Source: an uncultured Deinococcales bacterium
GTDB taxonomy: Bacteria > Deinococcota > Deinococci > Deinococcales > JAAFIG01
Reading direction: 5' to 3'
DNA: 11,563 nt
NCBI GenBank assembly: GCA_964244895.1
Contig: CAXTKV010000174.1
Span: forward strand, 1 to 11,563
Positions 1,185 through 10,980 of this stretch are shown here, piece after piece. A program made the translations under genes and the position numbers. The first letter of the stretch is position 1. The number at the start of each line of letters is the position of its first letter. The notes below the pieces were generated by a model. That model was not told where the DNA came from, did no database searches, and saw nothing but the letters and a program-made list of their open reading frames with translations.

Positions 1185-2198
1185 ATGCAGAACGTCTCCC
1201 CGTCGCACCAGAGCTCAGGCGTCCAGCCCAAAGCGCCGTTCAGAGCCTCGAGCTTATTGTTCCGCTGGGAAGTCATCCTGGTCGTTTTGTTCATCGTCGT
1301 GATGATCGTCAACAGCCGCCTGACGCCGTACTTCTGGGACCCGTACAACCTGGGCGACGCGACCTTCAACTTCGCCGAAAAAGGCATCATGGCGCTCGCG
1401 ATGGCGCTGGTGATCCTGTGCCGAGACATCGATCTGTCGGTGGCTTCCACCATCGCGCTCAGTTCGCTGACGATGGGCTTCGCCGCGCAAGCTGGCGCTG
1501 GGCCGTTCGTCCTATTCGCCGTCGGCATCCTGACGGGCACGATCTGCGGCGCGTTCAACGGCTTTCTGGTGATCCGCTTCGCCGTGCCGAGCATTGCGAT
1601 CACGCTCGGTACGCTGTCCTTGTTTCGCGGCATCTCCCAGGCCGTGCTGGGCGATCAGGCGTTGACCACTTACCCCGCCAGTTTCTCGAGCATTGGGCAG
1701 GGGTACTTCTTCAAATACCTGCCGATTTCGTTCGTGACTTTTCTGGTTCTGGCCGTGATCGTCGGTTTCGTGCTGGCGCGCACGCGCTGGGGACGGAACC
1801 TCTACGCCATCGGCAACAACCCGGAGGCCGCGCGGTTTTCCGGCATTCCCGTCAGCGCGTACCGATTCGCCATCTTCACCCTGTCCGGCGCGTTCGCTGG
1901 CCTCGCTGCCGCCTACCTGACGGGCCGAATCTCGAGCACGAGACCCAACATCGCACAGGGCTGGGAACTGGATGTGATCACGATGGTCGTGCTGGGCGGC
2001 GTCAGCATCGCGGGCGGCACGGGCACGATCGCGGGCGTGGTGATCGCCGTGCTGCTTTTGGGCATGATCTCTTTCGGCATGGCTTTGTTGAACATTCCCG
2101 GCATCGTCGCCAGCATCGTGATTGGGTCGTTGCTGGTGCTGGCGATTGCGTTACCACCGATCATCAAGCGCTTCGTCAGACCTGGGGCGAAAACGTGA
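1185..2198 (+). CDS. rhaQ: Sugar (rhamnose) ABC transporter permease, RhaQ-like
   Basis: 337 aa with DIDLSVAS, PSIAITLGT, WGRNLYAIGNNPEAARFSGI and STRPNIAQGWELDVITMVVLGGVSIAGG. Starts 3 nt after the first permease. Confidence 0.85.
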   Translation: MQNVSPSHQSSGVQPKAPFRASSLLFRWEVILVVLFIVVMIVNSRLTPYFWDPYNLGDATFNFAEKGIMALAMALVILCRDIDLSVASTIALSSLTMGFAAQAGAGPFVLFAVGILTGTICGAFNGFLVIRFAVPSIAITLGTLSLFRGISQAVLGDQALTTYPASFSSIGQGYFFKYLPISFVTFLVLAVIVGFVLARTRWGRNLYAIGNNPEAARFSGIPVSAYRFAIFTLSGAFAGLAAAYLTGRISSTRPNIAQGWELDVITMVVLGGVSIAGGTGTIAGVVIAVLLLGMISFGMALLNIPGIVASIVIGSLLVLAIALPPIIKRFVRPGAKT

Positions 2199-2207
2199 GA
2201 ACACCGT

Positions 2208-2324
2208 TCTTGCTCGAAAGACAGCACCTGACGGGCTACTCGCGCTTCTTGCTCGTAAGACAGCACCTGACGGGCTACTCGCGCTTCTTGCTCGAAAGAC
2301 AGCACCTGACGGGCTACTCGCGCT
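2208..2324 (+). repeat. 39-bp tandem-repeat array, locus 2 (3 units: 2208-2246, 2247-2285, 2286-2324)
   Basis: Unit TCTTGCTCGAAAGACAGCACCTGACGGGCTACTCGCGCT x3; unit 2 differs by one base (GTAAG vs GAAAG). Flanked by GAACACCGT (2199-2207) and CCCACAC (2325-2331). Confidence 0.97.
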
Positions 2325-2345
2325 CCCACACACGAATTTTGGAAT

Positions 2346-2379
2346 CTCGAGAAACACCGTCCTGGACGGTGTTCTCGAG
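2346..2379. repeat. REP-like palindrome, near-perfect copy
   Basis: CTCGAG-AAACACCGT-CCTGG-ACGGTGTT-CTCGAG, a dyad centred on T2363 and capped by CTCGAG on both sides. Confidence 0.92.
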
Positions 2380-2400: not shown

Positions 2401-3171
2401 GTGCTGACGGAGACGCCACCCAGGGCGCGGCACGAGGTCATCCTTCAGGAAGTCCTGACGCGCAAAACCGTGCGCATCAAAGACCTGGCGCACAAGCTGG
2501 GCGTTCACGAGATGACCGTGCGACGCGACGTGGACACGCTGGTCGAACAGGGTTTGCTCGAACGCATTCACGGCGGTGCGAGGTTGCTGACCCGCGCCAG
2601 CGACGAGGTGGCGTACAGCCTGCGCGTCAACGAACGCGCGGACGTGAAAGCCCGCCTCGCCCGCGCCGCGCTCGAGTTGATCCGCGACGGTGACACCATC
2701 GCGCTGGACGCGAGCACCACGGTCTTGTCTCTGGCGCAGATCGTGGGCGCGAGGGACGTGACCGCGATCACCACCAGCTTGGACGCCGCCAACGCCCTGG
2801 CGGGCGCGAACGTGCCGTTCACGCTGATCGGCGGGACGTTCCACGCTCGGGCACGAAGCTTCGTCGGGCCGCTCGCCACGGCGACGCTGAAGAAATTGCA
2901 CCCGGACAAGGTGTTCTTCTCGAGCAAAGGCTTCACGCCCAAAGCGGGCTTCACGGACGCGCACCTGCCGGAAACCGAGATGAAAGAACGCCTGATTTCC
3001 AACGGCGGCCTGATCGTGGCGATGCTGGATCACACCAAGTTTGGACGCACAGCGTTGAACACGATTGCCGATCTGGACGCGGTGGATGTCTTGATCACCG
3101 ATGAAGAACCCGAGCAGGACGTGAGGGATACGCTCGAGGCGGCGGATATTCGATTGATTGTGAGTGAATAG
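2401..3171 (+). CDS. DeoR/GlpR-family transcriptional regulator (probable rhamnose operon repressor)
   Basis: HTH segment IKDLAHKLGVHEMTVRRDVDTLVEQGLLERIHGGA and sensor-domain motifs GDTIALDASTT, DHTKFG and VDVLITD. GTG at 2401 follows GGTGGA and gives a typical 256 aa protein; the 2122 start in the ORF track runs through repeats. Confidence 0.92.
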   Translation: MLTETPPRARHEVILQEVLTRKTVRIKDLAHKLGVHEMTVRRDVDTLVEQGLLERIHGGARLLTRASDEVAYSLRVNERADVKARLARAALELIRDGDTIALDASTTVLSLAQIVGARDVTAITTSLDAANALAGANVPFTLIGGTFHARARSFVGPLATATLKKLHPDKVFFSSKGFTPKAGFTDAHLPETEMKERLISNGGLIVAMLDHTKFGRTALNTIADLDAVDVLITDEEPEQDVRDTLEAADIRLIVSE

Positions 3172-3172
3172 T

Positions 3173-3607
3173 ATGACTCAAGAATCATCAGAAGGATTGA
3201 CAAATAAAGACTTAATCAAACTAGCATTAAAAATGTGTCTCAAGACAGTTTCTATAGCTTCAATTTTGTACATCGCATTCTTTGTTATTTTCAATATATT
3301 TTCTAAACAGAATCTAGACTTTATAGAGAATATGGCGGGTTTAGCTTACTTCAATTCCACCGCAATACTTTTTTATACGTTCGTGATTTCCCAAGCGTTG
3401 ACTCAAAATAAAAAACGATCTCCAGTCTTATTTATTCTGATTTTTCTTGTGATTCTTATTGTTTTTACAGCGAATCTAGGTGGAGTGACTAAAATAGTTT
3501 CGATTATTCTTCCCTCGATACTTTTTTCGATGGTTTTGTTCTGGGTAAATATTCGAGCCGCCATAAGAGCTTCACAAATAGCCGATTCTGAGGAGGTCTC
3601 GAGATGA
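3173..3607 (+). CDS. Hypothetical membrane protein (~4 TM), low GC
   Basis: Open frame of 144 aa from ATG 3173 (or GTG 3164) that fills the deoR-rhaI gap exactly. It has four hydrophobic stretches, and its stop overlaps the rhaI start (ATGA). About 31% GC by hand count over 3181-3540. Confidence 0.75.
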
Positions 3608-4860: not shown

Positions 4861-4914
4861 GAACACCGTCCCACACGCAATATCAGTAACATCGTCCAGG
4901 ACGGTGTTCCCGAG
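4861..4914. repeat. REP-like doublet, includes an empty target site
   Basis: GAACACCGT-CCCAC-ACG (4861-4877) is followed by TAACATCGT-CCAGG-ACGGTGTTC (4887-4909). The outer arms form an 11-bp perfect inverted repeat. A further CGCTCGAG...CTCGAGCG hairpin lies at 4816-4847. Confidence 0.88.
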
Positions 4915-7034: not shown

Positions 7035-7093
7035 GAACATCGTCCAGGACAGTGTTTCTCGAGCATCAAAGAACGCCGTTTGGGACGGTGTTC
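7035..7093. repeat. REP-like doublet, includes an empty target site on the - strand
   Basis: GAACATCGT-CCAGG-ACAGTGTTT-CTCGAG, then GAACGCCGT-TTGGG-ACGGTGTTC (7071-7093), whose reverse complement is GAACACCGT-CCCAA-ACGGCGTTC. Confidence 0.88.
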
Positions 7094-7163: not shown

Positions 7164-7685
7164 GTGAAGAAACGAGGCGCGAGCGAGCGGCGGGACACCC
7201 GGAAATCGTTCAGGAAATCGGTTCCGACATCCACGGTCATGATCGCGCTCGGTGAGACGCTCACATCAGCCACGGGACAGGAAAAATACCAGCACATCCA
7301 CGGCGAGATGCGGCTCGAGATCGGCGGGCGGGTCGTGCCGTACATGGGTTACCTGGGGCCGAAGGACGTGTGCATCAACGGTTGGGTTCGCGTATTGCGC
7401 TCCGTGATCGAGGTCTTCGGGCGCGACGGTCTCGAGCACACCTTCGACGAGGGCGAGCAGGGTCAGCCCGCGTACCGCTTCGAGCGCGACGGCGAGATGG
7501 CTTACCTGTCGATCGTGGATTCGCCGCTCTCCGAGGCTTCGGGTGACAAGAAATTCCAGCGCGTGCCGTTCAACTGGCGCGATCTGGAACCCGCGCTGCA
7601 CGGCTTCCGCGATGCGTTACTCGGGCGGTTGGGAACGCTCGCACCCTCGCAGGTCGAACACTGGAAACGGGTCTTCAAAGCCTGA
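7164..7685 (+). CDS. Hypothetical soluble protein, start uncertain (GTG 7164 or ATG 7239)
   Basis: The open frame has host-like GC3 codon usage and fills the rhaD-rhaB gap. The sequence is globular-looking (PYMGYLGPKDVCINGW, FDEGEQGQPAYRFERDG). No family recognised. Confidence 0.65.
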   Translation: MKKRGASERRDTRKSFRKSVPTSTVMIALGETLTSATGQEKYQHIHGEMRLEIGGRVVPYMGYLGPKDVCINGWVRVLRSVIEVFGRDGLEHTFDEGEQGQPAYRFERDGEMAYLSIVDSPLSEASGDKKFQRVPFNWRDLEPALHGFRDALLGRLGTLAPSQVEHWKRVFKA

Positions 7686-9323: not shown

Positions 9324-10112
9324 TCACTTCAGCAGCCCGAGCAATTCCTGAAGCTGCGCCCGATCCAACGGCCCGAGGTGGCGAGCCTCGACGCGACCAT
9401 CAGCGCCGATCACGAAACTCGTGGGCAGACCGGACACCTGTAGCGCGGCGCGCAGGTTCTCGAGGTCGCGGTAGACGGTGATCGGCAGGTGTTCGCGTTC
9501 CAGAAAGGCGCGGATGGTGGCGGCGTCCTCGCCCGCATCGAGGAACACCAATCGCGCCCCTCGAGCGGCTTCGCGGGCCAGCACGGGCATTTCGCTGCGG
9601 CATGGGCCGCACCAGGTCGCCCAGACGTTGACCAGCACGGGTTTTTGAACGTCCTTCCAGGTGGTCGGCGTGACGGAGGTCACGTCCAGGCGCTCCAGGC
9701 GGGCGCTCGAGGGCAGCGGTTCGGCGCGATCGGATGCGGGTCGCAAGAGTTGCGGTACGAACGCGACGACAAGCGCGATCAATCCCGCCGGGACGAGCCT
9801 GGCGGCCTCGAGTCGGAGCGTCCAGACCAGTGCGAGAATACCCACCACGAGGCTCCAGGGCCACGCCAGACCGCCCACGCGCGGATCGAGCAGGTTCGGG
9901 CCGAGCGCGCCCGAACTCAGGCCGTAACCGAGCCTTCCAGCGACCAGCGCCGCGACCAGTCCGATCCACGCGCCGCGCTCGAGCTTCGGGTTTTTCGTGC
10001 GGGAGATCAGGCCGGTGAAGGCGATCAAGCCCAGGATCAGCGATAACCTTCCCCATTCCAGCACGAACGGGCCGATGACCAGGGCGTCCGGTGTCAGTTG
10101 CACGCCTCTCAT
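9324..10112 (-). CDS. TlpA/ResA-family thiol-disulfide oxidoreductase with N-terminal membrane domain
   Basis: The C-terminal thioredoxin fold shows KPVLVNVWATWCGPCRSEMP, GLPTSFVIGADG and HLGPL. About 4 N-terminal hydrophobic segments. The start could also be GTG 10103. Confidence 0.88.
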   Translation of the reverse strand: MRGVQLTPDALVIGPFVLEWGRLSLILGLIAFTGLISRTKNPKLERGAWIGLVAALVAGRLGYGLSSGALGPNLLDPRVGGLAWPWSLVVGILALVWTLRLEAARLVPAGLIALVVAFVPQLLRPASDRAEPLPSSARLERLDVTSVTPTTWKDVQKPVLVNVWATWCGPCRSEMPVLAREAARGARLVFLDAGEDAATIRAFLEREHLPITVYRDLENLRAALQVSGLPTSFVIGADGRVEARHLGPLDRAQLQELLGLLK

Positions 10113-10958: not shown

Positions 10959-10980
10959 CTCGAGAGCACCGTCCCAGACG
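10959..10980. repeat. REP-like half copy (empty target site)
   Basis: CTC-GAGCACCGT-type arm: CTCGAGAGCACCGT-CCCAG-ACG. Confidence 0.7.

Follow-up and report, generated by a model that had tools for sequence, protein, structure and literature searches.

Small dispersed repeats (SDRs) are very small, gene-less units of 21-27 nt that show compensatory changes in their stems and are nested in themselves and in other repeats, and to our knowledge no enzyme is known for them. They were reportedly described from the Nostocaceae by Elhai et al. in 2008 (Genome Res 18:1484). Later papers cite the SDRs (PMC5861425; PMC3116915), give their range as the Nostocaceae (PMC5861425), and state the insertion of SDR5 in HIP1 (PMC5861425). 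A second described system comprises the REP and REPIN sequences and their RAYT proteins. According to one account, group 2 REPs are bulged hairpins behind a short motif, and the pattern for TnpA-REP is a motif at the hairpin foot together with a target that resembles the element's end (PMC8266576). Additionally, IS110 elements that target REPs are already known (PMC12288879; 10.64898/2026.03.19.712850).

The window analyzed here is an 11,563-nt stretch of a contig from an uncultured Deinococcales bacterium. It carries three gene-less hairpin units head to tail on the forward strand, at 2207-2245, 2246-2284, and 2285-2323, of which the second differs from the other two by a single base. The first unit reads as a leader T, TCTTG, a variable stem, an A-rich bulge, GC-A-CC, the loop TGAC, GG-GC, the stem partner, and CGC. 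The three 39-nt units had been recognized in the first-pass annotation and were recovered by TRF as a tandem repeat of period 39 at 2207-2324 (3.0 copies, 97% matches), and the true bounds of the array were set at 2207-2323 by the junction table and by a joint of 2206 to 2324 found in relatives. The array splits a REP. The left portion of the host arm (2197-2206, forward strand) overlaps the stop codon of an upstream sugar ABC permease gene (PF02653; 1185-2198, forward strand), and the remainder of the REP composite occupies 2324-2379 on the same strand, with its right arm at 2366-2376. A gene for the DeoR regulator of a rhamnose-type operon follows at 2401-3171 on the forward strand, and both genes are given as context only. 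The 11-bp inverted repeat of 2197-2207 and 2366-2376 was present as noted earlier, and the excision of 2208-2324 indeed yielded the exact 16-mer of the empty REP arm at 4861-4876 (forward strand). Further empty arms were confirmed at 7077-7093 (reverse strand) and 10964-10980 (forward strand).

A second array, missed in the first-pass annotation, lies at 1-52 on the forward strand, where the right-hand portion of a unit (1-13) is followed by a complete unit (14-52) and then by the remainder of another REP; the contig end truncates the array. Nothing recombinase-like was found among the genes of the window, in agreement with the earlier statement that it encodes no candidate enzyme. Two other open reading frames of the window were of uncertain nature. 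One, at 3164-3607 between deoR and the rhamnose isomerase gene, is AT-rich and membrane-protein-like and had no Pfam or NCBIfam match. The other, at 7239-7685, is flanked by two REPs and includes an HIH triplet; it belonged to no family and had only weak hypothetical look-alikes, including DUF7878 on 46% of one cluster.

The cyanobacterial SDRs are the nearest kind to this unit, by description rather than by sequence or fold. Like the SDRs, the unit is small, dispersed, and marked by compensatory stem changes, and it is nested in itself and in other repeats. Its host genome also contains a hyper-abundant palindrome, CTCGAG, which occurs 21,883 times in the whole genome (4.3 per kb), like HIP1 in cyanobacteria. 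The present unit is longer, however, with 36-40 nt rather than 21-27, it belongs to Deinococcales and not to cyanobacteria, it is not inserted in the abundant palindrome itself, and an RNA-guided IS110 element resides in its loop. With MITEs and with non-autonomous derivatives of IS200/IS605 it shares a non-autonomous nature and movement in trans, but it lacks terminal inverted repeats, a duplicated target, and an autonomous partner that matches it, and it consists of only one hairpin. The usual minimum size of MITEs and of IS200/IS605 derivatives is also about three times that of the unit. The unit further differs from derivatives of the latter type in that it lacks ends in common with a resident tnpA element and a fixed target of 4-5 bases before the cut. 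A description of this unit family, or of an IS110 targeting such a unit, was not found in the literature covered, from whose scope subscription journals and bioRxiv supplements were excluded, and the available portions of three further sources made no mention of Deinococcales repeats or their nesting (PMC3733652; PMC3184786; 10.64898/2026.10.21.760802).

The window's own genome (G000) contains 117 copies of the unit at 77 sites. A structure-aware parse returned 118 copies at 78 sites, of which one was a false parse (C30:16087), and it returned none from the reversed genome. Thirteen of the units host nested copies, up to three deep. A profile search of the genome at 18 bits or more gave 82 loci, with 66 in a REP context and 16 outside one, some of the latter being cut by contig ends. 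The filled REPs are always interrupted at the same bond of the left arm, which supports the earlier proposal of a tiny non-autonomous mobile unit at one exact REP bond. The three empty sites of the window are real; they are ordinary members of a family with approximately 3,565 empty arms in this genome, of which fewer than 2% are filled, and alone they prove little. The 16-mer of the empty arm itself occurs in 52 exact copies.

The survey of flanks upheld the predicted REP context for the majority of the loci, yet the 16 others did not conform to it, and the specificity for REPs that had been proposed was not borne out. Units have also entered their own loop, their own end (giving tandem copies), other hairpin repeats, and transposase genes, where removal of the unit restores conserved reading frames in IS3 (three sites), IS5 (two sites), ISL3, and IS256 elements.

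Relatives carry an empty allele of the window site. In two of the four public runs compared (X1 and X8), contigs that cover the neighboring genes at approximately 90-95% likeness join 2206 to 2324, skipping exactly the 117 bases of the array with one ambiguous base; the letters between the joined ends are marked 'not known' in the comparison output. The search for empty alleles suggested in the first-pass annotation was thereby answered, and its concern about an assembly artefact was dismissed. That the repeats reflect slippage, recombination between REPs, or mis-assembly, with no mobile element involved, is a scarcely credible explanation. Contig ends and gaps do often coincide with arrays (29 of 780 ends), and the growth of arrays may itself be slippage. 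Nevertheless, single units in unrelated genes, nested units of different subfamilies, covarying stems, and the empty alleles in other runs all speak against it, and simple slippage as the source of the first copy at each site, already doubted in the first-pass annotation, is refuted.

Head-to-tail accumulation was seen as described, though not by independent arrivals. Neighbors within arrays were identical in 8 of 22 pairs, as compared to 0.6% of random pairs, and shared their loop in 17 of 22 pairs, as compared to 18% of random pairs. Because the identity of neighbors is far above that of random pairs, arrays are taken to grow mostly by local copying, though a few of them combine different subfamilies. 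Circularly permuted arrays, as would arise by target-target recombination of an IS110, were considered and rejected, since mixed arrays join whole units with matched stems. Among orphan unit halves, no cargo other than IS110 was found, and the remaining halves are decayed copies. A replication-strand bias was not shown (34 versus 40 units, with a skew estimator that was not bimodal), and there was no transcription-strand bias, with 14 units in each orientation between co-directional genes and both orientations inside genes.

Throughout the family, the unit is a bulged hairpin in which a leader and TCTTG are followed by the variable stem, an A-rich bulge of 4-5 bases, GC, a bulged A, CC, a loop of 3-4 bases, GGGC, the stem partner, and CGC. 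The stem covaries: 58 distinct 4-bp stems were found over 344 units, and 188 of the 232 cells were Watson-Crick pairs, as compared to a shuffle mean of 81 and a maximum of 104. An alignment of 24 rows was 93% paired and included 29 double changes, while slid controls reached 24-47%; its rows are related, so that the shuffle number gives no probability. One row of the alignment (A1), L043, had wrong coordinates. In the window's genome, where the loop sequence was left free, the lower strand had GNNA in 81 of the 85 loops of four bases and GAA in both loops of three bases. This is the only unbiased loop count, as the loci of relatives were collected by patterns that fix GCACCT. In DNA, loops of the GNNA and GNA types are stable (PMC10085684). 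GNRA loops made up only about a third (73 of 205). We infer that the fold matters as single-stranded DNA. Two observations count against this reading: the unit of the window did not outperform shuffled versions of itself in folding (z 0.6 and -0.7), and one lineage includes variants of the loop and inner stem that break the GNNA rule. In G178, the loci L492-L497 have loops of 5-7 bases and altered inner stems, are heavily nested, and lack the IS110 target.

An alternative route would pass through RNA: reverse transcription of a structured transcript would yield a cDNA that is then inserted, and template jumping would give tandem copies with variable first bases. As RNA, the lower strand has the better fold in 163 of 205 units, and both the variable leader of 1-2 bases and the frequent identity of array neighbors (8 of 22, versus 0.6% for random pairs) would be in keeping with such a route. 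The loops, however, are not of the GNRA type, the leader is inherited with the subfamily, units lie in both orientations in and between genes, a search of Rfam gave no match for the unit, and the window's genome (91% complete, no contig below 2 kb) had no match to a reverse transcriptase (PF00078), and we regard this route as improbable. A similarly slim chance is given to a tyrosine recombinase acting on folded single strands, which would recombine the hairpin in the manner that an integron integrase recombines attC. Like attC, the hairpin has an extrahelical base and an unpaired spacer. The bulged anatomy with one extrahelical base and the single crossover point without duplication would suit such an enzyme, but there is no paired R-box around the crossover, and the unit carries no gene cargo except IS110.

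The ends of the unit were placed from sites where the empty state is certain. Palindromic targets reveal their empty state through their symmetry, and in these the first T remains part of the unit even where the target continues with A, C, or G. The leader was T, TG, TC, TA, or G and followed the unit subfamily: the long subfamily has T or TG, and the short subfamily has G in most cases (at 68 of 76 other sites, irrespective of the base that follows). The long family departs from this pattern at 7 of the 16 sites with an A after the cut, where its leader is A or G. Since the first T travels with the unit and the leader follows the subfamily, the array in the window extends from 2207 to 2323 without a target duplication. 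The absence of a larger duplication had thus been correctly seen in the first-pass annotation, while the T it took as shared or ambiguous is the unit's own leader.

The target rule is loose, with mostly C before the cut, T after it, and often the edge of a hairpin loop. Among 214 targets, the base before the cut was C in 159, the two bases before it were GC in 96, and the base after it was T in 136, leaving 78 without a T. The sequence that precedes the cut is similar to the end of the unit itself. The enrichment of hairpins among targets was weak overall (mean -7.3 versus -6.5 kcal/mol, p 0.012, 111 sites). In the best-folding targets the cut often falls, by eye, at the first base of the loop, whereas the REP insertion site lies in a stem. 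The 9-mer GTGC^TGGAC was used in two IS3 genes, yet at no REP right arm in the site list, which suggests that the target is chosen by structure over sequence.

The unit was matched in all 18 other genomes of the family, with 1 to 323 copies (0-2 in controls). Its presence in two more families is patchy: seven genomes of one hold 12-177 copies each, and four genomes of the other hold 4-6. The named records that bear units are titled Deinococcales, Deinococcota, Trueperaceae, or Truepera. Before counting, 39 non-Deinococcota loci that were chance matches, viral loci, distant IS110 loci, and C30:16087 were dropped, as were L358 and L498, which were judged to be chance; the viral loci, which came from a loose pattern, were likewise rejected as chance matches. 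The order-wide tallies cover 363 genomes, one of which (G332) is unpublished, and no claim depends on it. In genomes with few copies, units lie inside genes of the IS1, IS3, and IS630 types and in repeats of 165-175 bp, at several different positions. The loci L459-L491 comprise several families of such MITE-like repeats in genera g7 and g24, with the unit at differing positions. Two other loci, L257 and L309, share a conserved noncoding stretch of approximately 390 nt, which covers some 60 bases ahead of the unit and 330 behind it on the minus strand near 10000, with copies 92% alike. It lies upstream of IS1-type remnants in a Trueperaceae record, had no Rfam match, and is intron-like by eye only.

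Our preferred, if tentative, reading is that a strand-transfer enzyme supplied in trans, with the HUH type as the likeliest, would cut the units out and join them in while they are folded as single strands of DNA; the probability of this reading is placed somewhat short of even. The fold would bring both ends of the unit together, one cut per end would free a small single-stranded circle, and the circle would then be joined to an exposed strand that bears a nick; we infer the circle, the strand, and the enzyme alike. An HUH-type reaction is favored because the precise ends, the lack of duplication, the motif at the foot of a bulged hairpin, and the target like the unit's own end form the TnpA-REP pattern. 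The likeness between the C or GC before the cut and the unit's own end would be as in HUH enzymes that use a single cleavage motif for both partners. Against this reading, the two indications of the active strand disagree, with the loop pointing to the lower strand and the logic of the cleavage motif to the upper.

The comparison with REPs and REPINs runs in both directions. These share with the unit a bulged hairpin that has a short, fixed motif at its foot, a likely single-strand substrate, and many extragenic copies (PMC8266576; PMC3116915; PMC3733652), as well as an imperfect palindrome with a conserved bulge in group 2 (PMC8266576). The unit differs in that it has no GTAG, its foot consisting of TCTTG on one strand and GC on the other, and in that its crossover falls between C and T rather than at a CT or CA site chosen by GTAG. 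It also moves as a singlet, whereas singlet excision is given as not found for REPs in PMC3116915, and no RAYT is flanked by the unit, the flanks of RAYTs being GTAG repeats.

Among 53 proteins with an HUH motif in a crude gene call of the window's genome, only a RAYT was credible, and this is the only HUH Y1 gene of the genome (52.6 bits, cut-off 80, with GTAG-type flanks). It was missed by a search with PF01797 and found through its motif, tblastn, and a local profile. The gene (L509:622-1185, G000:C12) has its own GTAG-type repeat in frame within the gene and at its start. The analogy to RAYTs as the motor, raised in the first-pass annotation, found no support: the RAYT of this genome is flanked by another type of REP, and RAYTs do not track the unit across the order. 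Relatives of this RAYT were found in 16 of the 18 family genomes, and in none of the 111 genomes of genus g7, some of which have 12-41 units; two families that lack the unit nevertheless have such relatives, in 32 of their 91 genomes. Two genomes (G178 and G085) have units and gave no Y1 match. No unit-like hairpin was present in the 17 TnpA or RAYT flanks inspected. The window's genome, with the completeness given above, had no match to an IS200-type TnpA or to an IS110, and none to IS91 (PF04986), for which the positive control was silent too. Recurring contig ends were ordinary IS ends, with none unit-like among the matches listed.

That no shared transposase was found among the three families of the order that hold units would also suit a rival in which a housekeeping enzyme that breaks and rejoins single strands, such as a type IA topoisomerase, moves the hairpin. 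On this account the unit needs no dedicated transposase and spreads between lineages by riding in IS elements and MITEs, as could be said of the low-copy genomes with units in IS1-, IS3-, and IS630-type genes and at several positions of 165-175-bp repeats; the loose target rule is compatible as well. The invariant TCTTG, bulged A, and CGC end nonetheless suggest a dedicated reader, and most genomes of the order have no unit although all possess such enzymes. We consider a host enzyme of this kind rather unlikely.

An IS110 element resides in the loop of the unit in some relatives of the window's genome. Its recombinase is DEDD plus Tnp (NF033542, 212 and 198 bits, cut-off 140), and the elements are bounded by the two halves of one unit with CT at both sides. 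The right end was found in 11 of the 363 genomes, each with at least 45 units. Of 29 right ends, 27 continue directly into the intact half of a unit and two into decayed halves. The noncoding left end has a predicted two-part fold (z -3.8), in which one stretch repeats the left target and another is the reverse complement of the right target. This predicted target guide follows the loop variant in 12 of the 13 copies with both ends, over seven variants, with L390 as the miss; L385, which has no flank, was left out of the count. Similarly, a single guide was recovered in G010, and the loop that it reads is the one found at all ten right ends of that genome. Truncated arrangements were also seen: in L058 (minus strand, near 384) and L230 (near 1250), left halves of the unit are followed by an IS3 remnant or an IS110 left end that lacks its first 30-40 bases.

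The companion element is like IS621, ISPpu9, ISPpu10, and MITEPpu9 in its recombinase, the CT core at both ends, the two-loop noncoding left end, and the palindromic target (PMC11208158; PMC12288879; 10.64898/2026.03.19.712850). It differs from these REP-targeting elements in that its target is itself mobile, has a variable loop, and in turn invades the donor guide. Because it lacks the IS ends, the unit cannot be classed as a MITE of this IS110; nor does it resemble an IS110 derivative, for its ends fail to match the donor guide and there is no two-base core on both sides.

An IS110 motor had been a further analogy of the first-pass annotation. In its present form, the recombinase, or a sister with another bridge RNA, would move the unit as a minimal non-autonomous donor. 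The right end occurs only in unit-rich genomes, nested units enter the same CT as the IS110, and two sources indicate that IS621 can release single-stranded circles and insert through half matches (10.64898/2026.08.31.748434) and that the first core base is flexible (PMC11208158). However, the associated IS110 inserts into the unit and does not carry the unit's ends, and its donor-side guide stretches match the IS ends and not the unit junction. Unit targets have no 7-base match in common with the target guide. IS621 cuts after the CT core and needs the T (PMC11208158), whereas the unit crosses between C and T, with 78 of 214 targets lacking the T. The element was not found in the window's genome (where neither PF02371 nor PF01548 gave a match), in G178, G141, and G085, or in 9 of the 18 family genomes. 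Other IS110 groups of the family showed no link to the unit, and relatives at 44-52% identity sit in other repeats. This motor is accordingly thought quite unlikely. Five loci with distant relatives (L416, L422, L428, L432, and L455; 44-46% identity) have the element at a CT in other structured repeats of approximately 90 nt, which are possibly further small mobile families.

Since IS621 cuts after the CT core, the unit crosses inside the core, and the IS was not found in several carriers, the IS110 looks like a parasite of the unit and not its motor. It may use the unit as a safe landing site. In turn, 12 of 17 left ends have a unit in their left donor guide, at one and the same bond, and at least three unit types on separate branches are involved. 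The unit types that recur in the donor guide have lost the IS110 target motif. These insertions may be hot-spot events, which would disturb the guide or be rescued in trans. Copies with a filled donor guide still match their own targets, so that the insertion would be tolerated, recent, or rescued in trans; the two loops of a bridge RNA can come from different RNA molecules (PMC11208158).

A broader picture, which we offer as a rather doubtful one, would be a DNA replicator of 36-40 bases that does without its own transposase, since a host enzyme would move it in the form of a single-stranded dumbbell circle. It would be engaged in a two-sided conflict with an RNA-guided recombinase, in which the IS110 would retune its guide to the loop variants, the loop would diversify in escape, and the hairpin would strike the donor guide of the bridge RNA. 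The companion IS110, with seven natural guide and target pairs on one scaffold and natural insertions in the donor loop, provides a test set for the retargeting of bridge RNAs in nature. A precise, duplication-free chemistry for the insertion of a 40-base single strand would also serve genome engineering. How repeats of less than 50 bases move has been open since the SDRs were described, and this family offers exact ends, a fold backed by covariation, and a target rule, together with near-complete carrier genomes and a defined substrate with which the enzyme may be hunted.
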